Counted from the first letter of the stretch, positions 5,637-51,544 are shown. The stretch: DNA of 64,000 nt from Thermoanaerobaculia bacterium (GCA_035995205.1 DASYKS010000002.1:51026-115025); one strand, 5' to 3'. Notes: generated by a model not told the origin, from the sequence alone. Program-made: numbers and translations.

Positions 5637-6200
5637 CTACTTCGACCAGGGCGGTACGACGCCGTTCATCCGGGCGTAGGCGATCGATTGGCCGAGGTGC
5701 TCGTGGCTGTGGCTGATCACGGCCAACACGATGGCGCGCTTGGTCATCTGGCGGCCGAAGAAATCGACTTTGGTTTCGAGATCGGCGGCTGAGAGCGCCG
5801 CGATCACTTTCTTGACGTGGACGTAGGAGGCCTTCATTGCATCGGTCGCCTTCGCCTTGTCGGTGGTCGAGGATTCGAGATTCTTGGCATCGACCTCTTT
5901 GGGAATCGGCGCGCCGAGGAAGGTTCCAAGGAAGTAGTTGCCGCCCGCCACGTGCAGGGTGACCTCGGCGTAGGAGCGCACCCCTTCGGCCGGCCGCCAA
6001 GCCCATTTTTCGGTCGGGACGGCTCCGGCGAGCTGCACCAGCTCGTCTTCGGCGTGGTCGAGGTTCGTGGCGACGTCGGCGAGGAATGCCGCGGTCGCCG
6101 GGGCATCGTCCGCCCGGGCCGGAGCGGGGGCGAGCGAAGCGGCTGCAGTGGTAAAGGCGGCGAGCGCCAGAGCGAGAAGGGGCAGGCGGGAACGGTTCAT
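5637..6200 (-). CDS. secreted DinB-family protein
   Basis: 187 aa. It has a signal peptide and a four-helix DinB pattern ending HSHEHLGQSIAYARMNG. Confidence 0.65.
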   Translation of the reverse strand: MNRSRLPLLALALAAFTTAAASLAPAPARADDAPATAAFLADVATNLDHAEDELVQLAGAVPTEKWAWRPAEGVRSYAEVTLHVAGGNYFLGTFLGAPIPKEVDAKNLESSTTDKAKATDAMKASYVHVKKVIAALSAADLETKVDFFGRQMTKRAIVLAVISHSHEHLGQSIAYARMNGVVPPWSK

Positions 6201-7642: not shown

Positions 7643-7692
7643 GCGATTCCTTTCGAGGAGAACTGGAAGACGATGATAGCGCGCCGGCCCCT

Positions 7693-7747
7693 CCTGGGTG
7701 CGCGGGCCTCCGGCCCGCCTTTGCGGGCGAGACGCCCGCGTACCCAG
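7693..7747. repeat. REP-like nested palindromic element, copy 1
   Basis: CCTGGGTGCGCGGGCCTCCGGCCCGCctttGCGGGCGAGACGCCCGCGTACCCAG. The outer 14-bp stem encloses an inner GCCCGC/GCGGGC hairpin. It is nearly identical to 51433-51487 and lies just 3' of the sulfatase-like gene stop. Confidence 0.8.
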
Positions 7748-7750
7748 AGA

Positions 7751-9550: not shown

Positions 9551-9595
9551 GGGGGGATCTTAGTGGCAAGCCGAGGCCATACAATCCCCCCGTCC

Positions 9596-29995: not shown

Positions 29996-30247
29996 GAAGC
30001 CACCCAGAAATTCGCTGAAGCGACCCGGATGATCGCCGAGGCCATCCGGCCGAACGGTGAAGTCACCGAGGCGAACCCTGAAGCCACAGACTGGGACGGT
30101 GAAGCCACCGAGAAATTCACTGAAGCCACCGAGAAATTCGCTGAAGCCACTGAGAAAACCCCCGAAGCCACCGAGAAATTCACTGAAGCCACGCAGAAAA
30201 CCTCTGAAGTCCCCCAGAAATTCGCTGAAGCCACACAAAGTGCCTAA
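29996..30247 (+). repeat. array 1, forward arm: 12 exactly phased 21-bp tandem units (core GAAGCCACC plus a variable 12-mer)
   Basis: Units start at 29996, 30017, 30038, 30059, 30080, 30101, 30122, 30143, 30164, 30185, 30206 and 30227. The best copies read GAAGCCACCGAGAAATTC(A/G)CT. Confidence 0.9.
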
Positions 30248-30249
30248 TT

Positions 30250-30560
30250 CTTCGGTGGCTCGACCGATTGATCGGTCCAATTCGTTGAATTTCTCGGTGA
30301 CTTCACCCTTGGGTTGGGTGGTTTCAGCCGTTCGATGGGTGGTTGGAGGGAACTTTTGCGCTACTTGGGCGGCCGTTTGTGTGGCTTCAGGGGTTTTCTC
30401 GGTGGCTTCAGCGAATTTCTCGGTGGCTTCGCACGGTCCGTCTGTTGCTTCGGGGCGTTTTGCGGTGCTTCACCCCCGTTTTGCGTGGCTTGGACGCCCA
30501 AACTGCGTGACTTCACGGAAAATTCTGTGTGGCTTCGCGTGAAGCCCCGCGAGGCTTGGA
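30250..30560 (-). repeat. array 1, reverse arm: about 14-15 units of the same family in inverted orientation (period 20-22 bp, more degenerate)
   Basis: GGTGGCTTC-type cores end at 30261, 30304, 30325, 30346, 30367, 30388, 30409, 30430, 30451, 30471, 30492, 30514 and 30536. The segment 30381-30430 is the reverse complement of 30122-30171 (48/50). Confidence 0.85.
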
Positions 30561-31539: not shown

Positions 31540-32532
31540 TTACAGATCCTCTTCCGTCGGAGGAACGTCGTAGATTTCGATCAGGTCCTGGAACCGGGCG
31601 GCGAGCTTCTTCCCCGCGGCGGCGGAGAGAGGGCCGTCGGGCCAAGCGCTCCGGATCTCGTCGATCGCCTTCTCCGCCCCCGCCCGGTCCGGAGGCGGGA
31701 TCCGATCGAAAAATCGCTCGTTGGCTCCCTCGGAGAAGAACGCGTCTCGCGGCCCGAGAGCGGCCAGACGGCCGGCCTCCCCGCGGGCTCCGAGCTCGAA
31801 GATGTGAAGGTCTGGTTCGTGGTCGTTGTCTCGCCGGAAGGCGCCTTCGAGGGTGCGGAGCGCGGTCAGGCGCTCGGGCTTCGGGACGCTCGCCTGCTGC
31901 AGTCGGTCCCTGGCCTTTTCCACCGCCGCCTGATCTTCCGGCGAGGGGAAGTTGGCATAGGTGAACAGAACTCCGAGGCACTGGGCGAAGTCCGAGATCT
32001 GCTGCTCGTCGCCGCCTTCGATCGCGACGCTCAGGTTGACCAGCGTCGCCCCCGCCTGGAACGCGACCACGTCGTGCAGAACGATCGCCTCTTGCTCCAC
32101 CCCGCGTTGCGCGTCGAAAGGCTCCAGCTCGCGGGCGAGCGGTCCGGGATTCGCCAGAGGCGCGGTCAGGCTCGCAAAATCCACCGGCGGTAGCGGTCGA
32201 AGGTGCCACCAGACCGATAACCCCACCCCGACCACCAGCACCGCGGCGAGTGCCTGCCACGCGGGCCGCATGACCGACCACCCCGCCTTGCGGCCGAACG
32301 GCAGCACCTTGCCCTTCTCCTCGGCTTCCTCCCGCGCCCGTTCGTCGCTCTGGAACCGCACCGATTCGGTGTAGATCTCGTAACACTCCGCGCAGTGATC
32401 GAGGTGACCGGCCACCTCCTCCCGCTCGGGAGGGCCGAGGCGGCTCTCGATAAACGCTGCGATCGCTTCAAGTTGCGGATGTGGGCTCAACAGCGGTTCT
32501 CCCCCGGGCCGGCCTGTGATTCTGGGTGACAC
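31540..32532 (-). CDS. membrane-spanning zf-HC2 anti-sigma-factor-like protein
   Basis: 330 aa with a GTG start. It has HLDHCAEC (H-x3-C-x2-C), one TM helix (WQALAAVLVVGVGLSVWW) and a periplasmic C-terminal domain. No sigma gene lies upstream. Confidence 0.6.
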   Translation of the reverse strand: MSPRITGRPGGEPLLSPHPQLEAIAAFIESRLGPPEREEVAGHLDHCAECYEIYTESVRFQSDERAREEAEEKGKVLPFGRKAGWSVMRPAWQALAAVLVVGVGLSVWWHLRPLPPVDFASLTAPLANPGPLARELEPFDAQRGVEQEAIVLHDVVAFQAGATLVNLSVAIEGGDEQQISDFAQCLGVLFTYANFPSPEDQAAVEKARDRLQQASVPKPERLTALRTLEGAFRRDNDHEPDLHIFELGARGEAGRLAALGPRDAFFSEGANERFFDRIPPPDRAGAEKAIDEIRSAWPDGPLSAAAGKKLAARFQDLIEIYDVPPTEEDL

Positions 32533-32843
32533 GCGGTGCTCGATCCCATTGGACGGACAAGACTACGTCCGTTACCGCCTGGATCGCGACGAATAGTTAC
32601 AAATCGCTCCGGCGGGCGCCACGGCTAGCCCTTTTTTCTGCTTGCGCGGTGAAAACCCGGTCTTGCGTCCGTCTCCTCCTGCAAGATGTCGCCAGGCTCG
32701 TTGAAAACTGGGGCCAAGCCTACGTGCCAATCCTGCCAGGTTAGCGTAAACTCTTGGCATCAGGCTTCAAAACAACTTTTCGGTCGAAAGGGCAACCCGC
32801 GGGCAATCCTTCTCTTGACCGCTGCCCGCACCCTCCATGAGCT

Positions 32844-35800
32844 ATGCGAACCGATCTCGCCCTGATTTCATTAGACCGTCCCGCAAGGCGCTGGGGTTGG
32901 ACTTCGAGGGCTGGAGCCTGTGCGCTCCACACGCAAAATCGGCTACCGCTCGCGATCGAACTCTGCATAGCCATCATGAGTCTCGTGTTCATATCTGGAG
33001 GATGCCCCTCGAAGGCGCAGAAGTGCGATGCAGAGCTCAGTGTTCTACGGCAGGTTTCAAGGGGCAAATTGATCTTCCTGGGGCGTTTCACCGGAGATCC
33101 TTCTTTTCTGCGGTCCAGAGAAGATCAGAGTGGCGAAAGGCCCTTGTCCCGAGTCGTGGCTGGCCTCCGACAATGTTTGGAGCAGGAAGGTTCACCCAGA
33201 GCGATCCACGACATCGGACTTCTTGACTTCTTTCAAGGACGGTTTCGTCAAGCGGCTCTCTCCTTCGAAGCGGCAGCGGTCGCAGAGCCTTTAAATGCCC
33301 TATTCCTAAATGACCTGGCGGTTGCTCGTCTTGCATTCTCGAAGCTGCACCCCGAGAATCTTCCCGCTGCTCTGGCTGCGGTCGACGAGGCACTTAAGGT
33401 TAAGCCAGCACTGGAAGAGGCGTGGTTTAACCGAGGCGAGATTCTTTCACTTCTTGGTTTGAAGTACCAAGCGGCCTCCGCTTGGGAAACTTATCTTCTA
33501 CTCGACGGATCTTCTTCCTGGAGCGCTGTCGCACGAGCTCGTGAAGCGAACCTCGCCCTGCCTTCAATCGAGGAAACATGGAGCCGTCAGCTGCGCGAGA
33601 TCAAGCAACTAGGCGTGAGCCCCTCAGCCGCGCAAGCGGTTGTAAACAGGTTCCCACACGCAGCAAGGCTCTACGTGGAGGAGGAAGTGCTCTCCGGTTG
33701 GGCCGACGCGACGCTTCAAAATAATCCAGGTCGGGCAGAAACCCAACTGGCAACCGCACGGGCGATCGGGCACGCGGTCTTTAATCGGACCGCGGATCCT
33801 ATGACGCGCGATGCCGTGAATATTATCGATCAAGCGCGGGAGGTAGGGAATTCCGGCCTTCTCAATCAACTAGCCTTGGCCCATGCAGCATTCGGTCGCG
33901 CTATAAAGCTCTACAAGGAGCAGGATCTGGAGGAGGCCCATTCTTTGTTTGTCCGAGCCGCGAGTGGACTTGGAGCTTCGGGTAGCCCTTTTGTAGGTTG
34001 GGCTGAGTTCTACTCCTCTCTCTGCGACCATTACTCTGATTCCGAGGGAGCCCTGCAAGCGTACGAACATCTTAAAGAGACATTCGGTTCGACGCCATAT
34101 TCGACTCTTGCTGCTCGCATCGAGTGGATGCTCGGAACTGTCGAGAGCAACCGTAATCAGCCCGAGGTCGGTCTAAACCATTTCCACGCCGCCTTGAGTC
34201 GCCTCGACTCAAGCATTGGTTTTCAAGCCTCGGCCTTCGTTCACGTTCTCCTTGCAGAAGCATACAAAACGCTAGGTGACCAGGATAACGCCTGGCGGGC
34301 GCGGCTAGCGGCTCTTCCAATGCTCGCTCATTTAGGTGATCGCCGCCGACTGCATGCCGCCCTCTGGGAGGCGTCCGACGCACTTCTTCGGCAGAAGGCT
34401 ACTCGACCGGCCCTCGACGTGATCGAGGAAATGCTGGCTAATGACGAGTTGTGGGCGAATCCGGGCGCATTGGCCGAAGCACTGCAAATCAAGACAGAAG
34501 CGCTTCAGGCTTTAGGTAGATCTCACGAAGCTCTGGAAACTGCGCGGAGGGGCCTCAATTTAGTACGTATGATGCCCCCAAGTGCGCAAAGGGAACGAAT
34601 CGAAGTGGCACTTCAGCTTGCTGAAGGAGAGTCTCTTTCAGCAGATCAACCTCGGCGCGCGATCGAAATCTTAAGCGAAGCTCTTGAGAGCGATCTCAAT
34701 CGCGGGTTCTTCTTTCGAGAGGTGCGCCTCCGAATCGCTCGGGCGCAAGCGGCCGCAGCAATGGGACGGGTGGCGCTCGCCAAGTCAGATCTTCTTCAAG
34801 TAATCGCCGAACAGGAACAAATTCGCCGAAAAGTCGCGGATCGACAGCTGCGACTGAGTTACTTCTCGGGTGTTCAGGCTGCGTTCGACTTAATGGTTAG
34901 CATTCAACTTGCAGGCAGGGATAGTGCCGCTGAGATCCTAGAAATTGCAGAACGAGCCCGCGCCCGCCAGTTTCTTGACTCACTCCTCCTGCTAGATGGA
35001 AGCAGGATCCGCGGTAACGTGGGTATGCAGCCTCAGCGGCTTGCCGAGATCATTAAACACTTACCTCTTCGTACGACGCTTGTAGAATTCTTCGTCTTGC
35101 CAGATCAGTTGGTTGTTTGGACTATACATGCTGGAGTTCTGAGCGAATCTAAACAAAGAGTCGATCGAGAGACACTTAAGGGAGAGGTTCATACATTTCG
35201 CCTTGCTCTCGCAAGGCACGGTACAATTCACGAGATCCAGGCCGCGGGCGCCCGTGTCTTTAACCGGCTTCTGCGGCCTTCTCTGGCGGGACTTCCAAAT
35301 GAATCCCTTGTCCTCGTCCCCGACCGCTTCCTTCTTGATGTGCCATTTGCCGCACTCTACGATTCCCAGAGGCGCCGGTTTTTGCTCGAGGACCGGGAGA
35401 TCATGCTGGCGCCTAGCGCATCGTTTTTTCTCTCGACCGCTGAGAGAGAGCCCGCACCCGAATATAAGGATGGCATAGATGCTCTCGTCTTCGGCAATCC
35501 AGCATTTGATTCGAAGCGTTCAAGAGACCTTTCTCGCCTGCCGGCTGCCGCTGCGGAAGCCGCCGGTGTCGCAGCCCAATATTCGTCATCGCGGCTATTG
35601 CTAGATGCTTTCGCGACACGAGAGGTATTCACTCGCGAAGCGGGGAACTGGAAGGTCGTACATTTCGCTGGCCATGCCCTCGACGATGCCGATACGCCCG
35701 ATCGCTCGCGGCTGGTATTCGCTCCAGATAGAAGAGGTGATCCCGGGTTCCTTTACGCCTCGGATATCGTTGGCTTGCCATTTAGAAAGACTCAGCTCAT

Positions 35801-36101
35801 AGTACTGTCGGCCTGTCAATCCGTTAGTGAGGATAAGGGCCGAGAGGGCTTTTCTGGCCTTGTAGCAAGTTTCCTTTCGGCAGGAGTGCCAGCAGTTATT
35901 GCAAGTTTATCCGACGTCAGAGATCGTGCGGCCCGAGATCTGATGCTTGATTTTCATCGACAGCTTGCGGCAGGAATGCCCGCGGTTGCGGCACTGAGGT
36001 TTGCTCAGTTGAGCATGATGCGTAGGCCCGCTAGTCGATCTCCCGCAGATTGGGCAAGTTTTGAAATTTTTGGCCGTAATCAGGCCAGGAGGGCGCAATG
36101 A
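32844..36101 (+). CDS. TPR-repeat / CHAT-domain (caspase-like) protease; start uncertain (32844 or ATG at 32976)
   Basis: 1085 aa. The long helical-repeat region contains, for example, AWFNRGEILSLLGLKYQAASAWETYL. The C-terminal CHAT domain has the catalytic His in VVHFAGHA and the Cys in IVLSACQS. No signal peptide. G+C is visibly lower than the flanks. Confidence 0.85.
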   Translation: MRTDLALISLDRPARRWGWTSRAGACALHTQNRLPLAIELCIAIMSLVFISGGCPSKAQKCDAELSVLRQVSRGKLIFLGRFTGDPSFLRSREDQSGERPLSRVVAGLRQCLEQEGSPRAIHDIGLLDFFQGRFRQAALSFEAAAVAEPLNALFLNDLAVARLAFSKLHPENLPAALAAVDEALKVKPALEEAWFNRGEILSLLGLKYQAASAWETYLLLDGSSSWSAVARAREANLALPSIEETWSRQLREIKQLGVSPSAAQAVVNRFPHAARLYVEEEVLSGWADATLQNNPGRAETQLATARAIGHAVFNRTADPMTRDAVNIIDQAREVGNSGLLNQLALAHAAFGRAIKLYKEQDLEEAHSLFVRAASGLGASGSPFVGWAEFYSSLCDHYSDSEGALQAYEHLKETFGSTPYSTLAARIEWMLGTVESNRNQPEVGLNHFHAALSRLDSSIGFQASAFVHVLLAEAYKTLGDQDNAWRARLAALPMLAHLGDRRRLHAALWEASDALLRQKATRPALDVIEEMLANDELWANPGALAEALQIKTEALQALGRSHEALETARRGLNLVRMMPPSAQRERIEVALQLAEGESLSADQPRRAIEILSEALESDLNRGFFFREVRLRIARAQAAAAMGRVALAKSDLLQVIAEQEQIRRKVADRQLRLSYFSGVQAAFDLMVSIQLAGRDSAAEILEIAERARARQFLDSLLLLDGSRIRGNVGMQPQRLAEIIKHLPLRTTLVEFFVLPDQLVVWTIHAGVLSESKQRVDRETLKGEVHTFRLALARHGTIHEIQAAGARVFNRLLRPSLAGLPNESLVLVPDRFLLDVPFAALYDSQRRRFLLEDREIMLAPSASFFLSTAEREPAPEYKDGIDALVFGNPAFDSKRSRDLSRLPAAAAEAAGVAAQYSSSRLLLDAFATREVFTREAGNWKVVHFAGHALDDADTPDRSRLVFAPDRRGDPGFLYASDIVGLPFRKTQLIVLSACQSVSEDKGREGFSGLVASFLSAGVPAVIASLSDVRDRAARDLMLDFHRQLAAGMPAVAALRFAQLSMMRRPASRSPADWASFEIFGRNQARRAQ

Positions 36102-37036
36102 ACGAGTATACGCTTGAGTTATCCTTCTCAGGTCTCTGCCTTTTCACGTTTCACGGAGACCGCAAGAAACCAGACGAAGTGAATGTGCTCTTCCTCGCAT
36201 CAGAAGGATGTCACGAAGGACACCAGAATCAGAGCGCTAGTGATCTGCACACCCCACGCTTGACCTTTAGTCCTCAAGACCTTGAGGAAGCAAGCGTTCC
36301 TTATGACCTATTTCCAGATCTTGACGGGCGACAGTTAGCTATTCTGCGTCTGCCGGATCTTCCGATGGAGATCGTTGCCCCATCTAGAAGTGAATTACTC
36401 GCTTGCTGGCGAGATGAAGACAGGTACAATGATCTCCCGAAATCGCCGCCGACTGACTCCGATGAAACTTGGCTTGACTGGATCCCTTCTCTTAGACTGG
36501 TAAACCCTGAGACCCCAATTCCCACGGAGGAGGTTCCTTGGCTCGGACTCCGACCGGTTGTAATACCGCGGTTACGCCTGACAAAAGGGGATCTGAGTGC
36601 CGCATTCTTTTTGCGCGACAGAAACAACGATTACGTTTTTTGGGAATTTAAGGCGAGCGAGTCGGACGAGGCAATCGATTACCAGGCTATGGCCGGGATC
36701 ATCCGTTTAGAAATCCATGGTATTCCCGTGGAGGAGTCGGTTGAGATCGTCGCGGACGACGGGAAGTTTGAAGTCTCACTTCGGCCTCGACGATATCCGG
36801 ACGGGACGGTAGCTGACCGTGTGCGCGCGAGTTTCACGAATCTAGTCTCGGTCGACCCGAGGTTTCCTCCAAACGTTCTCGAACATTTTATACATTTTTA
36901 CGACCTCGTTGAATTCGGGGGGCGTCGGCCTAAGCTGCGAGTTCCCTACGCTCGCAGTGCGCCGATCACATCTGGGACAACTTACTGCCCAGTGAGCACT
37001 CACGGTGGGACTTCCACAGGGAGATGTAAAGAGTGA
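36098..37036 (+). CDS. orphan hypothetical protein (312 aa) in the CHAT-S8 operon
   Basis: Strong SD (AGGAGGG) 7 nt upstream. ATGA overlap with the CHAT gene stop and GTGA overlap with the S8 gene start. No motif that I recognise, and no signal peptide or TM helix. Confidence 0.75.
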   Translation: MNEYTLELSFSGLCLFTFHGDRKKPDEVNVLFLASEGCHEGHQNQSASDLHTPRLTFSPQDLEEASVPYDLFPDLDGRQLAILRLPDLPMEIVAPSRSELLACWRDEDRYNDLPKSPPTDSDETWLDWIPSLRLVNPETPIPTEEVPWLGLRPVVIPRLRLTKGDLSAAFFLRDRNNDYVFWEFKASESDEAIDYQAMAGIIRLEIHGIPVEESVEIVADDGKFEVSLRPRRYPDGTVADRVRASFTNLVSVDPRFPPNVLEHFIHFYDLVEFGGRRPKLRVPYARSAPITSGTTYCPVSTHGGTSTGRCKE

Positions 37037-38397
37037 TAGCGCCTATTCCACGATGCCTTTTGGGCAGTAATCAGCGTCACGCTGTTGACCACTTCGACGT
37101 TGATGGAGACGGGTTTGTGGAGAATGTTGACTTGGTGCGAGCAGTCGGTGCCTATGCCGGGCGGCCGCTGCTAGCACGCTGGACAAAGGAAAGGGAGAAG
37201 ATATTCGGTGCTGTTGCTAACCAGCTAATCGTGAGATTGACTAAGGGCGTCCCGAAAAAAGATGCGGTGTCAATGTTACAGGCTGCGTTGTGTGACAGGC
37301 CACATTTGCGCGATAGAATCATGATTCGTGGGAACACAAAGGATCTGCTTCTCGTCGAGCTTCGATCTACTCCAGGGGATCTTGAGAAATCGACAGATGA
37401 GGTCCCGTATCTGCTTACGGCGCTTCCGCGTCTAAAAGGTAATGCCTATTTCGAAGCTAGCCCCAACTATTTGGTTTTCGCACCTGAAGATATTGTCGGA
37501 AGTGCGACTAGCATAGCGGCAGGGCCGAAGCAGGATGACATTTTGCGAATTGGAGGTAAAGCGGCTTGGGGAGAGGGCGGAAGTACTGACATTCGAGTCG
37601 CCATTCTCGACTCTGGAATTGAAGCGACGCATCCTGACCTGGCAGGGAATATCTACTCGGATTCGTCGGGCGCAATTATTGGAGCGAACTTTTCTCAGAG
37701 CGGATCGCTTAATGACGACAGCTATCACGGTACTTTCTGTGCTGGCATTATTGGTGGCACCGGCGTCAAGCATGTAAATGGTGTTTGCCTACAGGTTTCG
37801 CTGATGCCAATCAAATTCTTGGGCCCAGATAGCTGCGGGTCGATTTATGATGCGATGAGAGGTATCGACTACGCGGTCGCTAACGATGCGCATGTTATCT
37901 GTGCCTCATGGGGGGGCATGCCTTTTGACAAAAACATGCGAGACAAAATCTCTCAAGCTAAGAACAGTTTATTCGTGACTGGCTCAGGGAATTTCACCCA
38001 CAACCTCGACACAGATCCTCCTTACTATCCTGCGAGCTTCGGCCTCCCCAATATGATCACAGTTGGTGGCACAGACAATCATGGTAACCCGATTACATGT
38101 TGGGGTGTGGGAGAGAAGAGTGTCCATCTGCTTGCACCTGGAGAGTCAGTCTATTCTACATTGCCACCTCCATTGCTTTGGGGAAGAGATAAAGGAACGT
38201 CGCTCTCTGCGGCCTTTGTTGCCGGGGCTTGCGCGCTCCTTGGGGCGGTTGCACTTAAGGGCGGTCGCCAATGGGACCCTGCGTGGGTCAAGTCAACCCT
38301 GCTACAACGGGTTTTACCGTTAGGTAGCGCGAAGTTGCTCTGCGTTTCGGGTGGCGAACTCAACCTTGCAGAACTGATAAAATTGCCCTTGCCATGA
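37033..38397 (+). CDS. S8-family subtilisin-like serine protease without signal peptide (N-terminal roughly 170-aa propeptide-like region)
   Basis: 454 aa. Catalytic triad: D in VAILDSGIEATHPDL, H in SYHGTFCAGIIGG, S in GTSLSAAFVAGACA. Oxyanion Asn is in GSGNF. Confidence 0.85.
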   Translation: MIAPIPRCLLGSNQRHAVDHFDVDGDGFVENVDLVRAVGAYAGRPLLARWTKEREKIFGAVANQLIVRLTKGVPKKDAVSMLQAALCDRPHLRDRIMIRGNTKDLLLVELRSTPGDLEKSTDEVPYLLTALPRLKGNAYFEASPNYLVFAPEDIVGSATSIAAGPKQDDILRIGGKAAWGEGGSTDIRVAILDSGIEATHPDLAGNIYSDSSGAIIGANFSQSGSLNDDSYHGTFCAGIIGGTGVKHVNGVCLQVSLMPIKFLGPDSCGSIYDAMRGIDYAVANDAHVICASWGGMPFDKNMRDKISQAKNSLFVTGSGNFTHNLDTDPPYYPASFGLPNMITVGGTDNHGNPITCWGVGEKSVHLLAPGESVYSTLPPPLLWGRDKGTSLSAAFVAGACALLGAVALKGGRQWDPAWVKSTLLQRVLPLGSAKLLCVSGGELNLAELIKLPLP

Positions 38398-38674
38398 GGT
38401 TGCTGCTTCGGGATTGCGACGTGAGATCAAGCTCATTGTGTCTTTCACGGAGTTCCTGAAGTGACATCCGTTGGTCCGTGAGTGAAAGATGGTTCTAGGT
38501 CATCTGGCCTGAGGGAACGACGTCAGTAGGCGAGTCCGCCGGTTGCCTGCCCAGTCTCGCCGGCCGAGCGATGTTAGGGGGCGATTTTCCCACTCGCCCT
38601 CCACCCCTGACACCTAGCTCTTCGTATAGTCTCGACAAGAACCAAGAGGGACGTAGAGAAGGGACCCCCCGAGG

Positions 38675-39373
38675 ATGAGGATTCTGGTCGTCGAGGACGA
38701 ACCTGCGCTTTCCTCGGCGCTTGCCGAGTTGTTGCGGCGTGAGTTCTATGCCGTGGACGTGGCCGAGGATGGGGCGACGGCGGAGGAATTGGCTTCGGTC
38801 AACACCTATGACTTGATCGTTCTGGACTGGACGATTCCCGCTCCGAGCGGGATCGAGCTTTTACGCGGGTGGCGGGAGAACGGGGATCAGACCCCTGTTT
38901 TGATGCTCACGGCGCGGAGCGGGGTGGACGATCGGGTGGACGGTCTGGACACCGGGGCGGACGATTTTCTGGCGAAGCCATTCTCGCTCGCGGAGTTTTT
39001 GGCCCGGGTGAGGAGCCTTTTGCGGCGGCGGGCGCGGACGTTGCAGAGCGAGCTTTCCGCGGCGGATCTGGCGATGGACCGGGCGGCGCGGCGGGTGACG
39101 GTCGGCGGCCGGCCTCTGGATTTGTCGCCCAAGGAGTTTGCGTTGCTGGAGTTTCTGCTCACTCGGCGCGACCAGGTGGTCACTCGCACCGAGATCTCGG
39201 AGCACGTCTGGGACGACTCGTTCGATTCGTTCGCCAACGTGGTCGACGTGACGATCCACCGTCTGCGGAAGAAGATCGACGGCGACCGGACGGATCGCTT
39301 GCTGCAGACGGTCAAGGGGGTCGGTTACGTGCTGCGTGGCGCGCGCGCGGTCCCGCCCGAGCCGGAGGGCTGA
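38675..39373 (+). CDS. OmpR-family response regulator
   Basis: 232 aa. MRILVVEDEP...DLIVLDWTIP...LTAR...GADDFLAKPF, plus a winged-helix C-terminus (GVGYVL). Confidence 0.9.
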   Translation: MRILVVEDEPALSSALAELLRREFYAVDVAEDGATAEELASVNTYDLIVLDWTIPAPSGIELLRGWRENGDQTPVLMLTARSGVDDRVDGLDTGADDFLAKPFSLAEFLARVRSLLRRRARTLQSELSAADLAMDRAARRVTVGGRPLDLSPKEFALLEFLLTRRDQVVTRTEISEHVWDDSFDSFANVVDVTIHRLRKKIDGDRTDRLLQTVKGVGYVLRGARAVPPEPEG

Positions 39374-41229
39374 TGCCTTTTTCGGATCTTCCGGCGCTTG
39401 AGTCGCCGCCGCCTCCTGCCGGGTCGAGACGGGGTTTGCGCCTGCCGGTCTTGATTTTGGTGCTCGGCGGCGCCGCGTCGTTTCTGTGGGGTACGTCCTA
39501 CAAGGTGTCCGAGCAGCAGCGGCTGCGGGACCGGGCGCTGATCCGCGCCACGCGGGAAATCAGCCTGGCGATGGCCACGTCCCATCTCTGGCTCGAAGAG
39601 GTGCTGACCGGGGACCACATCGATCGGCGGCAGATCTGGGGGCGGCTCGACCATGCGCACGATCTCGCGCTCCGGCTTCTCGACGGCGGCCGGTTGCCCG
39701 CGGACGGGATTGCACTGCCTCCAATCGAAGATCGGGATCAGCGTCGGCGGGTCGAAAACCTGCTGGCCGACATCGATCGGCTCCGTAACCTGGCGAGCGA
39801 ACGGTTGCACGGGTTGGACACCGGCGTCGCGACGGGAGTGGGAACGGAGATCGATGCCCTGTACGACCTCCTGTTCGAGCATGCCCTCAAAGAGGCGGCG
39901 GTGCTCGAAAAGGAGCTCGAGGGACGGATCCTGCACGACGACGATCGGACCCGCCGGACCTTTCTCGGTTTCCTCCTTCTCTGGCTGGCCATCGTGATCG
40001 TCTCTGCGATCGGTCTTTGGCGGCGGGAGGTGCGGCGCCTGGCCGCCGAGGAATCGCTGCGCAAGAGCGAGGCCCAGCTGCTCCAGGCGCAGAAGATGGA
40101 GGCGGTCGGCCGGCTCGCGGGCGGCCTTGCCCACGACGTAAACAACTTCGTCACCGCAATCACCAGCCAATGCGAGTTGGTCCAGCTCGATGCGGAACCG
40201 GGGGGTCCGCTCGACGTCCGAATGGACCTGGTGATCGGGACCGCGCAGAAAATCTCGGGCCTCATCCGGCGGCTTCTGGCCTTCAGCCGGCGCCAGGCGA
40301 TCCAGCCGCAGGTGGTGCGATTGAACCGGGTCGTCGCCGGTCTGGAGGCAATGATGCGTGGATTGATCGGCGAGGACATCCAGCTCGAAACCGTGCTCGG
40401 CGACGAGGTCTGGCCGGTGAAGATCGATCTTTCCCAAGTCGAGCAAATCGTCCTCAACCTGGTCGTCAACGCCCGAGAAGCGAGCCCGCGCGGCGGCCGG
40501 ATCATGATCGAGACGGTGAATTTTTCGATCGATCGCGGCCTGTTCGAGGGACCGACGGTGGTGGCGCCGGGCGACTACGTGCTGCTCGCGGTGTCCGACA
40601 CCGGCATCGGGATCCCGCCGGAGCTGAAGGATCAGATCTTCGAGCCGTTCTTCACCACCAAGACCGGCACGGGCAACGGGCTTGGGCTCGCCACGGTGTA
40701 TGGCATCGTCAAACAGGCGGGCGGCCACATCTCGGTTTACAGCGAGGTGGGCCGCGGCACGACGTTCAAGATCTATCTGCCGCGGACGATGGAGGCCGAG
40801 CCGCAGCCCGCCGTTCTGGCGGCGCCGAGCCTCGGCCGGCGCGGGTCGAGCGGCCGCGAACGGATCTTGCTGGTCGAGGACAACGGCGAGCTACGCGAGG
40901 CGACCGGCGGCATTCTTGCGGCCTACGGCTACCGGGTCACGGCGGTCGAGAGCGGCGAGGCGGCGCTCGAAGCGATCGACCGAGGGGTCGCGCTCGACTT
41001 GGTGGTCTCCGACGTCGTGATGCCCGGGCTGTCGGGCAAGGACGTGCTCGATCGCATTCGCGAGCGGCGCCCGGACCTGCCGGTGCTGTTCATGTCCGGT
41101 TATACCGACAACGTGATCTTCCGACACGGCCTGCTCACGGGAGAGCTGGATTTCTTGGAAAAGCCATTCGCCGCGGCGCGCCTGACCGCCAAAGTGCGCG
41201 AGATCCTCGATCGGAAGGTTGTGGCTTAA
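39373..41229 (+). CDS. hybrid sensor histidine kinase / response regulator
   Basis: 618 aa from the ATG at 39373, with a 1-nt TGATG overlap. It has two TM helices. H-box is GGLAHDVNNFV and the G-boxes include GNGLGLATVYGIVKQAGG. The C-terminal receiver reads ILLVEDNGELRE...VVSDVVMPGLSG. Confidence 0.85.
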   Translation: MPFSDLPALESPPPPAGSRRGLRLPVLILVLGGAASFLWGTSYKVSEQQRLRDRALIRATREISLAMATSHLWLEEVLTGDHIDRRQIWGRLDHAHDLALRLLDGGRLPADGIALPPIEDRDQRRRVENLLADIDRLRNLASERLHGLDTGVATGVGTEIDALYDLLFEHALKEAAVLEKELEGRILHDDDRTRRTFLGFLLLWLAIVIVSAIGLWRREVRRLAAEESLRKSEAQLLQAQKMEAVGRLAGGLAHDVNNFVTAITSQCELVQLDAEPGGPLDVRMDLVIGTAQKISGLIRRLLAFSRRQAIQPQVVRLNRVVAGLEAMMRGLIGEDIQLETVLGDEVWPVKIDLSQVEQIVLNLVVNAREASPRGGRIMIETVNFSIDRGLFEGPTVVAPGDYVLLAVSDTGIGIPPELKDQIFEPFFTTKTGTGNGLGLATVYGIVKQAGGHISVYSEVGRGTTFKIYLPRTMEAEPQPAVLAAPSLGRRGSSGRERILLVEDNGELREATGGILAAYGYRVTAVESGEAALEAIDRGVALDLVVSDVVMPGLSGKDVLDRIRERRPDLPVLFMSGYTDNVIFRHGLLTGELDFLEKPFAAARLTAKVREILDRKVVA

Positions 41230-42839
41230 TCCAGATCGATCCAATCGCCCTCGGGCACGAAACCTTTCGTCACCACGTCGAGCTTCACCAGATAAGCGCC
41301 GCGGGCGCCCATCCGTTTGCCGGGCCGGAAGCGGAGCGGGGGAGAGACCCCGGTGTCGTAACGCTCGAAGGTTTCGAGCGTCGCGATCAGGTGGTCGCGG
41401 GTGAGATCGCGGCCGATTTTTTCGAGCGCCGCGACCATGAGCTTGATCGCCGCGAGCGCCGCTCCTTGAGTGCCGAGATCTCCGGAGGTGAGCCGGTGCG
41501 CCGTGGCGAGCGCCCGCCATTCGGCCGCCTCCTCGGATTTCAGATCGAGCGGGCGGACCGGAAACGCGAGACGGACCCCTTCCGCGAGCGCGGTCGGCAG
41601 GTCCAGCAGAGCCCGGTCCGCGTACGCGCCGAGCGCCAGGAGGCGCGGTCGCGAGCCGAGCCGGTCGAGCGCGAGCAGCAGGGCCGAGGCGTCGCGGGCG
41701 GGGCCCAGGTGGATGATCGCGGTAACGTTTTTTGCGGCGAAATCGCGGGCGGCGACTTCGACCCAGGGGTCATTCGGGCCGCCGGCGGCGGAGTAGCGTC
41801 GAATTACGGTGGGGGCATATCCGCGGCGTTCGGCCTCGGCGACCACCGCGTCGGCGAGCGGCGAGATCTCGGCGGCGTCCGAAGCGACCAGGGCGAACGC
41901 CGGCCGCACGGTTTCCTTAGCCAGTGTTTCGACCAAGGCGCGCGCCTGATCGGCGGGCGAAGCGAGGAGATAGAACGTCTCGCGGTCGAGGTCGGCGTCG
42001 GCCGGTGGAAACAGGCTGATCGCGCCGACCGCCGGAACCTCGCGCTCTTCGAGCAGGTCGGCCAGGGCCCGGTCCGAGCCCGGCGCGCCGGAGAGGTCCG
42101 GAGCCACCAGGGCGAGCACGGGGATACGATCTAGAAAGTCCGCGGCGATCCGGGCGCGATCCGCCGCGTTGCCCGTGAGCGTTTCGGCCGCCAGCTCCAG
42201 CTTCCGGCCGTAGAGGCCGCCGCGCTGGTTGACCTCGGCGACCGAGGCGTCGAGGAGAGCTCGCGTGACCCCACCCGGTTCGCCCGGGGCGAGCAGCGCG
42301 CCGAGCCGCACGGTGGTGGCCGAAACGCCGGGGATTGGCTCGTTGCCCACCCGCTTCAAATAGGCGACCAGATTGGCGATGTCCGCCTGGCTCATCCGGT
42401 AGCGCGGCATCGTCGGATTGAGCGGATTGCCCGCCGGATCGAACCCGAGCGTGACCGCGCGCTTGACGCTCTTTTCGTCGTACGGCGGATGGGTGCGGCC
42501 GAGCAGCGCGCCCGAGCCGTACGGCTTGGTGAGAGAGTCCCAGGTGATGTTCGAGGGGGCGATCCCTCCCTCGGGCCGGCCCCGGCCGTCGCGGCCGTGG
42601 CAGCTGCCGCACGGCAGGGTGACGCCGGGGACCGCGCTTTCGGGTCCGCCCGATCCCATCACCGCCGTGATCTCGCCGCCCGTGCCGCTTTCGCCGGCCA
42701 GGAACAGCCGCTTGCCGCGCGACTCCTCGGGGGAAAGCGGCGCCGGCTCCCCGGCCGCGGCGGCGAACCGGGGAATCGCGAGACCCGCGGCGAGCAGCAG
42801 GGCGAGCGCAAACGGGAGACGCCGGGTCTGGGTGTTCAT
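41226..42839 (-). CDS. fusion of a mono-haem cytochrome c domain to a type-1 periplasmic (Leu/Ile/Val-type) solute-binding domain
   Basis: 537 aa from the ATG at 42839 (MNTQTRRLPFALALLLAAG). The haem motif is CGSCH and PMPRY lies downstream. VRLGALLAPGEPGG...GLYGRKLEL is typical of the Peripla_BP_6 fold. An ATGA overlap couples it to the upstream SCO gene. Confidence 0.65.
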   Translation of the reverse strand: MNTQTRRLPFALALLLAAGLAIPRFAAAAGEPAPLSPEESRGKRLFLAGESGTGGEITAVMGSGGPESAVPGVTLPCGSCHGRDGRGRPEGGIAPSNITWDSLTKPYGSGALLGRTHPPYDEKSVKRAVTLGFDPAGNPLNPTMPRYRMSQADIANLVAYLKRVGNEPIPGVSATTVRLGALLAPGEPGGVTRALLDASVAEVNQRGGLYGRKLELAAETLTGNAADRARIAADFLDRIPVLALVAPDLSGAPGSDRALADLLEEREVPAVGAISLFPPADADLDRETFYLLASPADQARALVETLAKETVRPAFALVASDAAEISPLADAVVAEAERRGYAPTVIRRYSAAGGPNDPWVEVAARDFAAKNVTAIIHLGPARDASALLLALDRLGSRPRLLALGAYADRALLDLPTALAEGVRLAFPVRPLDLKSEEAAEWRALATAHRLTSGDLGTQGAALAAIKLMVAALEKIGRDLTRDHLIATLETFERYDTGVSPPLRFRPGKRMGARGAYLVKLDVVTKGFVPEGDWIDLD

Positions 42840-43459
42840 CCCTGATCCTTTGCGACGCTTTCGACGATCTCCACGATCTCTTTCGGCTTGGCGACGCCGA
42901 GCGCCTTCTTCCACAGGCCGGTCTGATCGTTGCCGATCGTGAAGACGGCGGAGTGGGCCTCGCGGTTTTCGGAATAGAGGCCGAGCTTTTTGAGCGCGGT
43001 CTCCCAGTTGGCTTGCGTGCCGGTGAGGAAGTACCAGCCCGGCTTGGCGTGGAAGCGTTCGGAGAAAGCTTTCATCTTCGCCGGGGTATCTTTCGGATCG
43101 ACCGAGAACGACAGGATGATGACGTCTTTACCCATCCGGTCGCCCGCCCATTCCTGGACCCGTTCGAGGGTGCCCGCCATCACCGGACAGACCCCGGCGC
43201 ATTCGGTGAACATGGCCTGGATGATCACGATTTTGCCCTGGAGCAGGTCGGCGTAGAAGCGGTGCTCCGTGCCGTTTTGGTCGACCAGGGGCGCGTTCGT
43301 GAAGTAGCGCTCGGCGGGGCTGCCGGGGCCGGTTTTTGCGGCGACCACGGGCGTTTCCGGCGACTGTGGCGGATCCTCTGCACGGAGGGCGCCCGCGAAG
43401 CCGGCGCAGAAGAGTAGCGCGAGCGGAAGAGAGAGAGCTTGAGCGAGGCGCATGGTCAT
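42836..43459 (-). CDS. SCO1/SenC-family copper chaperone (thioredoxin fold)
   Basis: 207 aa. It has a signal/anchor, a Cu-binding motif CAGVCP in FTEC-AGVCP, and ...SVDP. AAGGAAGG SD. Confidence 0.8.
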   Translation of the reverse strand: MTMRLAQALSLPLALLFCAGFAGALRAEDPPQSPETPVVAAKTGPGSPAERYFTNAPLVDQNGTEHRFYADLLQGKIVIIQAMFTECAGVCPVMAGTLERVQEWAGDRMGKDVIILSFSVDPKDTPAKMKAFSERFHAKPGWYFLTGTQANWETALKKLGLYSENREAHSAVFTIGNDQTGLWKKALGVAKPKEIVEIVESVAKDQG

Positions 43460-44064
43460 TTTCCTTCCTTCATTTTGGTGGTTGCACCCCCGAGGCCGTC
43501 GAGCAGCTCGGCGAGCTGGGCCGCCGGAGCGAGCGAGTAGGCCCGGGTCCAGCGCTTGTCGCGGTCGTTGCCGAGCAGCAGCGACGGGGTATGCCGCTTG
43601 ATATCGACGTCGAAGGCGCCGAGCGATTTGAGCAGGCGGACGATCTCGTCCTTCTCTCCCGTCACCAGCGTCCAACCGGGACCGGCGCCGAGCTTTTCGG
43701 ACCATGCCTTGAGCTTGGCGGGAGTGTCGGATTGCGGATCGATCGACACCGAGATCAGATGGACGTCTTTGCCGGCTTTGGCGCCGAGCAGCTTGCGGAG
43801 CTCGGCGAAGCGCGCACCCTGCGGCGTGCAGATCGTGCTGCACGTGGTGAAGACGAAGTTGACCGCGACGACTTTGCCTTGGATCAGGTCGCGGTAGAAA
43901 TGGATCTTCTTGCCGTCCTGATCGACCAGGGAGACGTCCGGAATCGTCATGGGAGCCAGCTCGGTCGTCGCTCCGGGGCCGGCACCGGCCGGGGCTCCCG
44001 AGAGCGCGAGCGAGAGGACGATGCCGGCCAGAGGAGCGAGCGAAAACCAAGTGCGGAGAGTCAT
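43456..44064 (-). CDS. SCO1/SenC-family copper chaperone, second paralog
   Basis: 202 aa. FVFTTCSTICT (CxxxC) and ISVSIDP. ATGA overlaps on both sides. Confidence 0.8.
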   Translation of the reverse strand: MTLRTWFSLAPLAGIVLSLALSGAPAGAGPGATTELAPMTIPDVSLVDQDGKKIHFYRDLIQGKVVAVNFVFTTCSTICTPQGARFAELRKLLGAKAGKDVHLISVSIDPQSDTPAKLKAWSEKLGAGPGWTLVTGEKDEIVRLLKSLGAFDVDIKRHTPSLLLGNDRDKRWTRAYSLAPAAQLAELLDGLGGATTKMKEGK

Positions 44065-46073
44065 GACTGCGGCGCTCCTTCGTTCGGCGGTTGGACTGTA
44101 GAGGGGGCGGATGCGGCGACCGGTGCGGATGCGGCAGGCACCTCGGTCGTATCGATTACCGTGGCCGGCGATTTTTCGACCTTCAGCCCCGCCGAGGTGG
44201 ATTCGACGAAGACGAAGTAGATCCCCTCCTCGGAAGGAGTGAAGCGGGTCTGGTAGACGCCGGGCTCGACCTCGGTGGCGGGCAGGGCGCGGCGATTGAC
44301 GCCCGGCGAGAGGAACGTGACGATGCGGACGTCCGAGAGCCCGGTCAACAGGGACTCGTCGGCCGTGCGGGAGAGGCGGAAGCGAAGGTTCACCTCGTGC
44401 CCCGGAGCGATCTTGGAATTCGGCTGAAGGGCGGTCGCGACAACCGGGGAGCGGGTATCGGGTTTGTCCGGATTCGCTTCGATCGTGAAGGGGAAGCATT
44501 CGACCATCCGCGGCGAGTTGACCAACAGGGTCAGGTCGCGCCGGCCGGCAGGGCCGAGCAGAAACGTGGTCGAGTAGCGGCCCGGTCCGGCGGGGCGTAA
44601 AGAGCGATCGACGGCGAGCACGGCGCGCGGCTGTCGCGAGTAGTTCTGGAAACTGCCCATCGGCGCCGCCATGCCCTCCTTGTAGTAGTAGATCATCCGG
44701 TCTTCCGGGTTCGCGAGCAGGATGGCGTCTTCACCCGGAGCCTGCACGATGCCGGCCGCGGGGGTCGGCAGATCCATCCTTCCGGGCGGGTTCTGACCGC
44801 CGGGAAAGTCGACCACCGGAACCGCCGCTCCTTCGTGTCCGACCTGCGAGAGCGGAATCATCAGAATGGTTTCGCTGCCGCGATGACGGACGTAGGCGAT
44901 GTCCTGGCTGAACGAGACCTGATCGGGCTCGCTTTCGACTCCGGGGCTCTGGACGATCCGCGGTCCGGCGGCGTCGACGATCGAGACGACGTTCTTCTTC
45001 GGGTTCGGCACGAAGCCGAGCCGGCCGTCGGGCGAAAAGCGGATCTGCGCGAGACCGGGTTCGGCCTGAAGCCGGACCAGCGGCCGTTCGGGGTCGGACG
45101 AGACGGAGACGATCGCGCCGTCGCCTTGGCAGGCCACGAACGCCGAGGCCGCCGGCTCGGACCAGGCGATCGAGACCGGCTGCTTGCAGGTCTCCACCCG
45201 GCGGATCTCGGCCAGGGTACGCACGTCGATCACCGAGACGCCGCCCGATTCGCGATTGGAGACGAAGACGTAACGGTCGTCGCCCGAGATCGCTAGATCG
45301 TGCGGCCCGGCGCCGAGGGGGATCGCCGCCGCCTGTTCGAGCTTGACGGTGTCGATCGCCACGACTCCCGGATCGTTCTTGCCGCCGTCGATCGCCACCC
45401 AGAGATAGCGCTCGTCGGGTTGGAGCATCAGGCGTCCCGCCCCTTTGCCCGCGGGGACGTTGGCGATCACTTTCCAGCTTTCGGTGTCGATCACCGCGAT
45501 CTCGCCCGCCTCGGCCATCGAAACGTAAAGGCGAAGCTGGTCTTTGGACAGCGTCCAATCGGTGCCGGCGCTCTTCAAGAAAACCATGTCGAGCAGTTTG
45601 CTGCCGCCGAAGGTGAACAACGGATCGACCACCGTGATCGTCGCGTCGTCGTTCAGGCCCAGGACGAAGTACGCGTTCAGGTCGTGCTCCGGTGGATTGA
45701 GCAGCGAGCCGCCGACGAAGCCCTGCAATTTCTTTTTGCACTCCTCCGGGTCGCTCGACTTGGCGGCCGGGGTGAGCGCGTCGATCCAGGCGCCTGGGAA
45801 CAGTCCGTCGAGCGGGGCCTTGGTGTTGGCGTCTTTGAACTCCAAACGGACGCGGGCCTCTTCGCCTTCCCGCAGCGGAGCGCCCGCACGAACGGCTTCC
45901 AGGTAGACCTCGACCGCGATACCGCCGACTTCGGCGTGGCCGATGGGGGAAGAACGGGAGAGGGCGGGAAGGGCGGGAGCCCCACCGGCCAACGCCCTCC
46001 CCGCGAACGGGGAGAGCAGAAGGCCGAGCAGGGCACCCGCGACCCGCCGAAGGGCGGGGGCGTTATTTGACAC
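44061..46073 (-). CDS. secreted beta-propeller (YVTN/lactonase-type repeat) protein with a C-terminal Ig-like region
   Basis: About 670 aa from the GTG at 46073, with signal peptide SNNAPALRRVAGALLGLLLSPFAGRALA. Repeats of the type LYVSMAEAGEIAVIDTESWKV and RYVFVSNRESGGVSVIDVRT. It overlaps the MCO stop by 11 nt. Confidence 0.65.
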   Translation of the reverse strand: MSNNAPALRRVAGALLGLLLSPFAGRALAGGAPALPALSRSSPIGHAEVGGIAVEVYLEAVRAGAPLREGEEARVRLEFKDANTKAPLDGLFPGAWIDALTPAAKSSDPEECKKKLQGFVGGSLLNPPEHDLNAYFVLGLNDDATITVVDPLFTFGGSKLLDMVFLKSAGTDWTLSKDQLRLYVSMAEAGEIAVIDTESWKVIANVPAGKGAGRLMLQPDERYLWVAIDGGKNDPGVVAIDTVKLEQAAAIPLGAGPHDLAISGDDRYVFVSNRESGGVSVIDVRTLAEIRRVETCKQPVSIAWSEPAASAFVACQGDGAIVSVSSDPERPLVRLQAEPGLAQIRFSPDGRLGFVPNPKKNVVSIVDAAGPRIVQSPGVESEPDQVSFSQDIAYVRHRGSETILMIPLSQVGHEGAAVPVVDFPGGQNPPGRMDLPTPAAGIVQAPGEDAILLANPEDRMIYYYKEGMAAPMGSFQNYSRQPRAVLAVDRSLRPAGPGRYSTTFLLGPAGRRDLTLLVNSPRMVECFPFTIEANPDKPDTRSPVVATALQPNSKIAPGHEVNLRFRLSRTADESLLTGLSDVRIVTFLSPGVNRRALPATEVEPGVYQTRFTPSEEGIYFVFVESTSAGLKVEKSPATVIDTTEVPAASAPVAASAPSTVQPPNEGAPQS

Positions 46074-51315: not shown

Positions 51316-51432
51316 TCCAGATCTCCTTAAGGCGCTATTCGGCGCCGCTGTCGGTTGAATCTGGGCGAACCCTAGGCCCCCGTCTCTTACACCGGCATTA
51401 CAGAAGGGTGAAAATGCCCGCCCTCTTCCCTT

Positions 51433-51487
51433 CCTGGGTGCGCGGGCCTCCGGCCCGCAATGGCGGGCGAGACGCCCGCGCACCCAG
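51433..51487. repeat. REP-like nested palindromic element, copy 2
   Basis: It matches 7693-7747 except for the 4-nt loop and one stem base. Here the stem extends outward (CCCTCTTCC...GGAAGAGGGG, about 51421-51496). Confidence 0.8.
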
Positions 51488-51544
51488 GAAGAGGGGCCGG
51501 GGTCCGCTTGACGCTCCGGCTGGGCCGGGTACAGACTTCGCGGC

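Follow-up and report, generated by a model that had tools for sequence, protein, structure and literature searches.

A 64,000-nucleotide stretch of DNA from a Thermoanaerobaculia bacterium (hereafter the window) carries, at positions 32844-38397, three overlapping genes that form a horizontally acquired, self-contained cassette foreign to its host. The first gene encodes a TPR-CHAT protease that is predicted to be exported and lipid-anchored. The second encodes a protein that, judged by sequence searches and a structural model, is a new beta-rich family and a dedicated partner of the CHAT protein, and the third encodes a second protease, here a subtilase. No description of the cassette or of the gene 2 family was found in the literature, and what is new is a variant of the CHAT-protease signalling module that contains a new protein family. 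The explanation that we favour, with a probability a little below one half (about 0.45), is that the cassette is a mobile cell-envelope protease relay linked to extracytoplasmic function (ECF) sigma factors, in which the gene 2 product is a dedicated substrate or regulator of the CHAT protein.

Layout, origin and recurrence of the cassette

Three consecutive open reading frames (ORFs) on the + strand, at 32844-36101, 36098-37036 and 37033-38397, encode proteins of 1085, 312 and 454 amino acids (aa). An earlier reading of this DNA (hereafter the original prediction) had described them as joined by start/stop overlaps and preceded, for genes 2 and 3, by strong Shine-Dalgarno sequences, and both features were located: ATGA at 36098-36101 joins genes 1 and 2, with AGGAGG 7 nt upstream, and GTGA at 37033-37036 joins genes 2 and 3, with GGGAG ahead of it. 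Joint Genome Institute (JGI) gene calls begin gene 1 at TTG 33177 and gene 3 at TTG 37060. We favour the longer ORFs because homologues conserve residues upstream of both TTG codons; for gene 3, the conserved upstream residues include an invariant Pro6 and support the GTG start. The JGI start of gene 1 strips its signal peptide and about 110 conserved residues, so that automated annotation would overlook the export signal described below.

The cassette occupies a low-G+C, horizontally acquired island with approximate borders at 32550 and 38620, delimited by the G+C profile, G+C content at third codon positions (GC3) and a break in synteny. As the original prediction had estimated by eye, the block is AT-richer than its surroundings: G+C is 54.6% in 32600-38600 compared with 66-67% in the flanks, and the profile stays at 0.51-0.59 from about 32500 to 38500. 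Third codon positions agree, with a GC3 of 0.51-0.53 in the three cassette genes against 0.82-0.88 in eleven flanking genes. The host can be assigned to the Acidobacteriota, since the flanking response regulator is 90% identical to its counterpart in a Thermoanaerobaculia metagenome-assembled genome (MAG; L026). Nucleotide synteny with this MAG, the closest Thermoanaerobaculia relative, starts at 38619, where the G+C dip ends on its right side, and all seven of the closest relatives possess the response regulator-histidine kinase pair with no cassette beside it. The suspected horizontal acquisition is thus borne out by composition, by absence from close relatives and by the synteny break. No clean empty site was found, as the closest relatives share the right flank only, and the island borders within the window contain no tRNA gene, integrase or flanking direct repeat. 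There was no match to an Rfam family, and scans for sigma-70 promoters and terminators performed no better than on shuffled sequence. In other hosts, the G+C content of the cassette equals that of the flanks; the contrast in the window therefore marks recent arrival rather than a property of the family. At one locus (L025), a phage-type tyrosine integrase (4854-5975) lies 1.2 kb downstream of the S8 gene, and gene 2 and the S8 protein both have signal peptides there.

Alignment scans for the CHAT and gene 2 proteins, followed by local annotation with hidden Markov models (HMMs), identified about 24 independent loci with the cassette. The order of a CHAT gene (about 1060 aa), a gene 2 family member and an S8 protease is repeated in L004, L005 and L006, where gene 2 identity is 25-29% and the flanks are unrelated, and the order CHAT, gene 2 family, protease is found again in L003, L007-L011, L013-L023, L025, L106 and L107. 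At every locus whose contig reaches far enough, gene 2 adjoins this CHAT family. All 12 of the loci from named genomes belong to Acidobacteriota MAGs (Thermoanaerobaculia, Holophagales or unclassified). The third gene always encodes a protease, the family of which varies between genomes: an S8 subtilase in 13 loci including the window, a trypsin-like S1 or Nal1-like protease in L009, L023 and L106, a papain-like C39/C70 protease in L008 and L012, and a caspase (C14) in L013, where it is adjacent, and in L010, where it is two genes away. As the third protease varies while the CHAT and gene 2 pair stays, the core that remains constant is this pair, with the second protease as an exchangeable part. 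The proposed combination, in which two proteases of different mechanism accompany an unknown third protein, is the rule for this family, and the test of neighbourhood conservation put forward with it is passed in about two dozen unrelated contexts.

This recurrence bears directly on the simplest alternative, that the three genes are chance neighbours or a decaying operon without joint function. In the window, the absence of export signals from genes 2 and 3 next to a gene 1 that has one could suggest a mismatched or degenerating set, and a related locus (L022) is broken by frameshifts. Against this, the arrangement is kept at 25-40% identity in some 24 independent loci whose flanks differ, the catalytic residues are all intact, the genes overlap and have Shine-Dalgarno sequences, and a signal-less S8 protease also occurs with intact genes in L004-L006. 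The conserved neighbourhood effectively refutes chance juxtaposition, and we regard this alternative as barely credible. In L022 itself (4776-10510, from a Holophagales MAG), the CHAT gene, gene 2 and the S8 gene are each split over several reading frames, reflecting either a pseudogenised copy or indel errors of long-read assembly.

The flanks of the loci are mainly housekeeping or metabolic, with genes for RF-2, Lnt, DnaB, glycogen debranching enzyme, glyoxalase, amidohydrolases, transporters, ABC/MacB permeases and TonB-related proteins. L107 is the one locus with a TIR/Mrr-type gene at its border. A location in defence islands, as would be anticipated from the original prediction of a conflict system, thus finds no support in about 20 loci, and the cassette may or may not have a conflict or defence role. 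In the divergent cassettes of L010, L011 and L013, extra caspase C14 genes are found nearby, some of them fused to FG-GAP or DUF4384 (L013 4-3441, L011 2652-5078, L010 11430-12410); the cassette-adjacent C14 genes of L010 and L013 have signal peptides, and L013 also has an M6 metalloprotease. These three neighbourhoods look like local clusters of envelope proteases.

Predicted products and their compartments

Gene 1 (32844..36101, + strand) encodes a 1085-aa cysteine protease of the DdvA/separase/craspase type, as indicated by the Pfam CHAT match, an AlphaFold model, Foldseek comparison and a profile match to DdvA. Its CHAT protease domain (aa 800-1077, 35241..36074, + strand) matches PF12770 with an E-value of 5.7e-61 (206.9 bits, cut-off 24), and the motifs HFAGHA (His940/His944, 35661-35675) and LSAC (Cys991, 35814-35816) are invariant in 12 homologues. 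Pfam TPR matches are all under their cut-offs. The TPR-like region (aa 100-715, 33141..34988, + strand) was recognised by its profile match to consensus TPR proteins (E 1e-37) and by the model, which has a mean predicted local distance difference test score (pLDDT) of 81.6 and shows a disordered signal and linker at the N-terminus, followed by an alpha-solenoid and then by a CHAT domain of alpha/beta type. Both the long TPR-like repeat and the intact CHAT dyad noticed earlier are thus upheld. The top Foldseek match to the model is DdvA (8rw5/8rot; E 1e-16, template modelling score (TM) 0.46-0.54, about 1040 aligned columns), followed by human separase (E 4e-14) and Csx29 (8eey_B, E 1.4e-12), and when a profile of the gene 1 family was compared to solved structures, the best natural sequence was again DdvA (E 2.8e-11). 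With a CHAT domain, a His-Cys dyad and the solenoid fold, gene 1 is, on sequence and model grounds, a member of the TPR-CHAT protease class and most like DdvA; site-specific endopeptidase activity, as in that class, is predicted.

The N-terminus of gene 1 (aa 1-54, 32844..33005, + strand) aligns with those of L004, L005 and L006 as a signal peptide with a lipobox, FISGG-C54. Its sequence LPLAIELCIAIMSLVFISGG, ending immediately before Cys54, aligns with the canonical homologue lipoboxes LLAG-C, LLTG-C and LVAG-C; neither Gly53 nor Cys54 varies in alignment A3, which comprises four sequences (window, L004-L006). Each of the 16 CHAT homologues examined begins with a lipobox or a hydrophobic signal or anchor, and between Met1 and Met45 of gene 1 there are no alternative start codons. 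Because the lipobox aligns with the lipoprotein signals of the homologues and Cys54 is invariant, we read gene 1 as exported: the protein is predicted to be lipid-anchored with its TPR-CHAT domain outside the cytoplasm. According to its published description, DdvA is a Myxococcus transmembrane anti-sigma factor whose ~900-residue C-terminal TPR-CHAT domain is experimentally periplasmic, has been proposed as a signal-induced site-1 protease, and belongs to a protein that controls a phage-defence island (PMC11506125). The statement that none of the three proteins has a signal peptide thus survives for genes 2 and 3 of the window and falls for gene 1. The conclusion drawn from it, a cytoplasmic site of action for both proteases, fails: the TPR-CHAT protein is a predicted exported lipoprotein, and the periplasmic domain of DdvA is its homologue and nearest structural match.

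Gene 3 (37033..38397, + strand) encodes a 454-aa S8 subtilase, with a PF00082 match over aa 186-426 (E 2.7e-36, 125.8 bits, cut-off 21.8). The triad reported earlier is intact: Asp193 (37609-37611), His232 (37726-37728) and Ser390 (38200-38202) are invariant in alignment A4, as is the oxyanion residue Asn320. Its catalytic domain is of the ordinary kind; among proteins of solved structure, subtilisin BPN', furin, kexin and intracellular subtilisins are nearest in sequence. The N-terminal ~185 aa, where a zymogen propeptide of the I9 type may or may not lie, contain a DxDGDG motif, are conserved among the cassette S8 proteases and have no Pfam match at E <= 0.1. PADLOC, when run on the cassette, reported only a generic subtilase model in gene 3 and no match in genes 1 and 2. 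There is no recognisable signal peptide in gene 3 of the window; at other loci, the third proteases of L010, L013, L018, L019, L024, L025 and L107 start with a signal or lipobox, and those of L004-L006, L008, L009, L012, L023 and L106, like that of the window, do not.

Gene 2 (36098..37036, + strand) encodes the 312-aa partner of the CHAT protein, identified as a family with HMMER and as beta-rich by its model. It has no matches in Pfam, NCBIfam or PADLOC, in line with the earlier remark that it contains no recognisable motif. Its orphan status does not hold: a word-indexed homologue search retrieved only gene 2 itself, and the family emerged from an exhaustive HMMER search, which returned 71 matches at E <= 1e-3, two of them spurious and nearly all about 300 aa long and aligned end to end. 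The spurious pair (P0020 and P0045), rejected as compositional artefacts, are giant Ser/Pro-rich eukaryotic repeat proteins that scored E 1e-24 and 1e-6 against aa 113-151 through many repeated short matches. The family is rare, with about 70 clusters at 50% identity, and a scan of viral contigs for relatives found none.

A model of gene 2 built from a 33-sequence alignment is very confident (pLDDT 90.3, predicted TM score 0.90) and consists largely of beta structure. At aa 33-50 it has a His-rich, disordered loop whose length varies, and past a conserved Cys-Pro it ends in a C-terminal tail of low confidence. The fold comparison suggested earlier gave nothing significant in the PDB or in BFVD, a set of predicted viral structures (best E about 0.01, TM about 0.1). 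The best PDB match has an E-value of 0.017 and a TM of about 0.1, gasdermins are absent from the list, and a gene 2 profile has no match among PDB sequences. Gene 2 is thus a protein family without a Pfam entry, with a confident model and no fold relative among solved or predicted viral structures. Across 41 sequences including a divergent clade, only His51 (36248-36250), Gly164 and Cys297 (36986-36988) are invariant, while position 263 is His in 34 and Asp in 7, a pattern suggestive of a metal site or catalytic centre. An export signal is almost never present in gene 2, the exceptions being L024 and L025; in both, the N-terminus is that of a genuine lipoprotein or signal-anchor protein, and its start codon follows a strong Shine-Dalgarno sequence. 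For the conserved N-terminus of gene 2, a signal of the type IV pilin-like or lipobox kind was considered and rejected, because the Glu is out of register, no Gly precedes it, the Cys is not invariant and the model has a confident beta-hairpin at this position.

The distribution of export signals fits a second alternative, in which the CHAT protease, and in some loci also the second protease, is exported and the gene 2 product is a cytoplasmic inhibitor or chaperone that silences CHAT until export, in the manner of staphostatin or securin. Export signals are a constant feature of the CHAT protein and an exception in gene 2; genes 1 and 2 occur strictly 1:1 with a 4-bp start/stop overlap, which couples their translation; and gene 2 is present whatever the class of the third protease. 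Staphylococcus aureus sspABC, which encodes a serine protease, a cysteine protease and the cytoplasmic inhibitor staphostatin, likewise comprises three genes in one operon: its two proteases differ in mechanism, and the exported cysteine protease is followed directly by the gene of a third protein that has no signal. It differs in having no sequence or fold relationship to the cassette, in the size of staphostatins (about 110 aa), in its protease families and in lacking a TPR sensor or sigma link. For separase, to which gene 1 is structurally related, the DdvA publication describes control by the pseudosubstrate inhibitor securin (PMC11506125). A 300-aa protein with an invariant His and Cys and a His/Asp position would, however, be unusual for a simple inhibitor, and the gene 2 proteins of L024 and L025 themselves carry a genuine lipoprotein signal or signal peptide. 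Moreover, no known inhibitor resembles gene 2 by sequence or fold, and the characterised TPR-CHAT proteases are specific signalling enzymes rather than bulk secreted proteases. We therefore hold the inhibitor model to be unlikely.

Sigma-factor neighbours and a promoter-like motif

ECF sigma or anti-sigma genes lie directly upstream of the CHAT gene, and divergent from it, in four loci: the window, L010, L011 and L012. In the window, the gene in this position encodes a zf-HC2 transmembrane anti-sigma factor (31540..32532, - strand; Pfam zf-HC2 E 5.6e-5), which lies outside the island and has an HxxxCxxC motif and a transmembrane helix; it is a possible functional neighbour of the cassette. L012 has a homologue of this protein in the same position together with a possible sigma-like protein without a Pfam match, and L010 and L011 have a sigma gene and an anti-sigma-like protein common to both. 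In addition, P0085 and P0087, both full-length homologues of gene 1, have the architecture of DdvA, with a zf-HC2 anti-sigma domain at the N-terminus, and an ECF sigma gene precedes P0087.

Upstream of the cassette, a motif scan found an ECF-sigma-type promoter-like motif, GAAAAC-N10-GTCCGTCTC (32651..32675, + strand), about 170 nt before the gene 1 ATG. The bipartite motif GGAAAAC-N10-11-GGTCCGTCTC is present on the coding strand of cassette genes in the window and in at least 8 other loci: it precedes the CHAT gene in the window, L009, L012 and L107, and with one mismatch in L018; it precedes the protease upstream of the CHAT gene in L106; and it lies between the CHAT gene and gene 2 in L016 and L022, and with one mismatch in L023. 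The strict motif is expected by chance 0.01 times per 64-kb window and was observed once in the window, and its count was 0 in 80 control loci (about 500 kb in total) that had originally been gathered for another purpose. AAC and CGT elements are typical of ECF promoters (PMC6061681), and both occur in the motif, which we therefore consider, from its sequence and distribution, to be a putative promoter, probably ECF-dependent, that travels with the cassette. Together with the adjoining sigma and anti-sigma genes and the fused forms, the motif overturns the idea that the block has no partner of any kind.

Several further observations were made at these loci. In L107, a second copy of GAAAAC-N10-GTCCGTCTC (6738-6761, - strand) faces the opposite way, toward an operon of four unannotated proteins (468-6692; 57, 398, 332 and 1173 aa), with the TIR/Mrr-type gene beyond; this operon may be in the same regulon as the cassette. 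Beside P0087 is a 285-aa gene in a position equivalent to that of the gene following the fused anti-sigma-CHAT gene of L108. The latter gene was tried as a remote gene 2 relative and rejected with scores at or below zero bits; its product (L108 4460-4942) has a canonical twin-arginine signal (MQRRDFLK).

Known systems, competing models and surroundings

Among characterised proteins, DdvA is the best structural and the best natural sequence match to gene 1. The two share the architecture of a TPR solenoid followed by CHAT, and both place the protease domain outside the cytoplasm (for gene 1, by prediction) behind an N-terminal membrane anchor and a flexible linker. The likeness extends to the zf-HC2 fusions of gene 1 homologues and to the sigma and anti-sigma genes that neighbour several cassettes. 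The differences are equally clear: gene 1 has no zf-HC2 match and carries a lipoprotein signal in place of the cytoplasmic zinc-binding anti-sigma domain and transmembrane helix, its family is found in Acidobacteriota and not in Myxococcota, and the cassette adds the gene 2 partner and a second protease, neither of which is reported for DdvA in the accessible part of its description. L108, the one DdvA-type locus compared, has an unrelated Tat-signal protein downstream. As it has no zinc-finger domain and no adjacent sigma gene, gene 1 is not a DdvA-type anti-sigma factor. To our knowledge, DdvA is the only periplasmic TPR-CHAT protein studied so far, and we know of no trigger or substrate for it. 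The cassette presents a DdvA-like sensor-protease as a (predicted) free lipoprotein that travels with a fixed partner and a replaceable second protease, and thereby supplies concrete candidate substrates or regulators for a periplasmic TPR-CHAT protease.

Craspase (Csx29/Csx30) and SAVED-CHAT/PCaspase resemble the cassette in that a TPR-CHAT or CHAT protease is encoded beside a dedicated protein substrate. Csx29 is a significant structural match to gene 1, SAVED-CHAT operates as a two-protease cascade, and a sigma/anti-sigma link recurs on both sides. These systems are, however, cytoplasmic and triggered by CRISPR RNA or cyclic nucleotides, whereas gene 1 is predicted to be exported. No cas, CARF or SAVED genes were found near any cassette in scans that covered selected adjacent genes in the window and about 20 loci, and no Csx30-like partner was recovered by the gene 2 profile from a PDB sequence set that is expected to include the Csx30 of 8eey. 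IetAS differs as well: the cassette has no ATPase gene, and the IetS HMM matches gene 3 over only 53 residues (E 3.5e-4). With no gasdermin fold found either, the analogies to gasdermin operons, type III-E CRISPR and IetAS that accompanied the original prediction do not carry over to this cassette.

The gasdermin comparison nevertheless underlies a third alternative, a proteolytically armed toxin or cell-death system, in which gene 2 would be a pro-effector (pore-forming, enzyme or metalloprotein) activated by a cut in its loop or tail, the TPR-CHAT protein would be the sensor, and the swappable protease would be a second activator, as in gasdermin-type or other conflict systems. Bacterial gasdermin surroundings combine a constant partner, the gasdermin, with a variable protease class (caspase-like, CHAT, S8 or trypsin-like). 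In the cassette, similarly, a constant non-protease partner of about 300 aa stands beside proteases of varying family, and both kinds of operon are mobile. The disordered variable loop and the low-confidence tail of gene 2 would offer sites for such a cut, His51 and Cys297 are invariant, and L107 adjoins a TIR/Mrr-type gene. A phage-defence island is under the control of DdvA, the protein to which gene 1 is most closely related (PMC11506125). On the other side, gene 2 has neither a gasdermin fold nor that of another pore-former and no PADLOC match, gene 1 has no PADLOC match either, two proteases are the norm in the cassette, and the CHAT protein is predicted to be exported; bacterial gasdermin structures should, we presume, be in the PDB library that was searched. 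The flanks of about 20 loci are mostly housekeeping, no viral homologues were found, and a sensor protease outside the cytoplasm, as predicted, is a misfit with cytoplasmic phage sensing. On balance, we regard the armed-toxin model as rather improbable.

In the envelope relay that we prefer, the cassette would be transcribed from the ECF-sigma-type promoter and form one circuit with a membrane ECF sigma/anti-sigma pair. The TPR solenoid would bind a protein cue or partner at the envelope, upon which the CHAT domain would cut a specific target. By analogy with Csx29-Csx30, SAVED-CHAT-PCaspase and separase-securin, the most likely target would be the gene 2 protein, as the product of the neighbouring gene is the substrate or pseudosubstrate in these systems; the anti-sigma factor could be an alternative or additional target. 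The second protease would act upstream or downstream as a replaceable relay or effector step. A protease relay had already been suggested in the original prediction, and the interchangeability of S8, S1, C39/C70 and C14 proteases fits relay-type logic, although the cytoplasmic setting envisaged for it does not stand. Should the sigma link prove right, the recurring connection of CHAT proteases with sigma/anti-sigma factors would reach beyond the cytoplasm to the cell envelope, and would do so in Acidobacteriota, a phylum with little experimental genetics.

A number of observations weigh against this relay. The window contains no ECF sigma-like ORF within its 64 kb, and most loci have no adjacent sigma or anti-sigma gene. 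The anti-sigma gene at 31540-32532 is host-like in composition (GC3 0.82), and its adjacency to the cassette could therefore be coincidental. The AAC-CGT distance in the motif, 13-14 nt, lies at, or slightly under, the lower limit of the spacings known for ECF promoters (PMC6061681). A signal on the CHAT protein and none on gene 2 or the third protease is what the window and roughly half of the loci show; the three products of the window thus appear to be made for different compartments, a split that a simple relay does not explain and that is the main reason why three models stay open. With its invariant His and Cys residues, gene 2 may be more than a substrate, namely an enzyme or a metalloprotein.

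A more specific proposal would combine the envelope setting with immunity. The cassette would be a periplasmic immune or cell-fate switch, in which the lipid-anchored TPR-CHAT protein senses a protein cue at the envelope, for instance an incoming phage or a competitor protein, cleaves gene 2 (as a His/Cys metalloprotein of new fold) and the anti-sigma factor, arms the second protease and feeds back via the ECF promoter. We consider this proposal distinctly doubtful; if true, it would give the cytoplasmic CHAT cascades of type III CRISPR systems a counterpart on the envelope side.

Two features of the surroundings were also recorded. At 30000-30499, some 2.5 kb left of the island, there is a further small dip in G+C (0.568) that holds a 72-aa ORF (30029-30247, GC3 0.60) and may be another foreign fragment. 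To the right, the flank at 38675-51717 resembles a copper/nitrogen-oxide respiration cluster; it contains genes for an OmpR-type regulator, a hybrid kinase, a periplasmic-binding/cytochrome c protein, SCO1, a redoxin and a cytochrome cd1-like protein, as well as an 1884-aa ORF with a faint, low-confidence Pfam match to multicopper oxidase.

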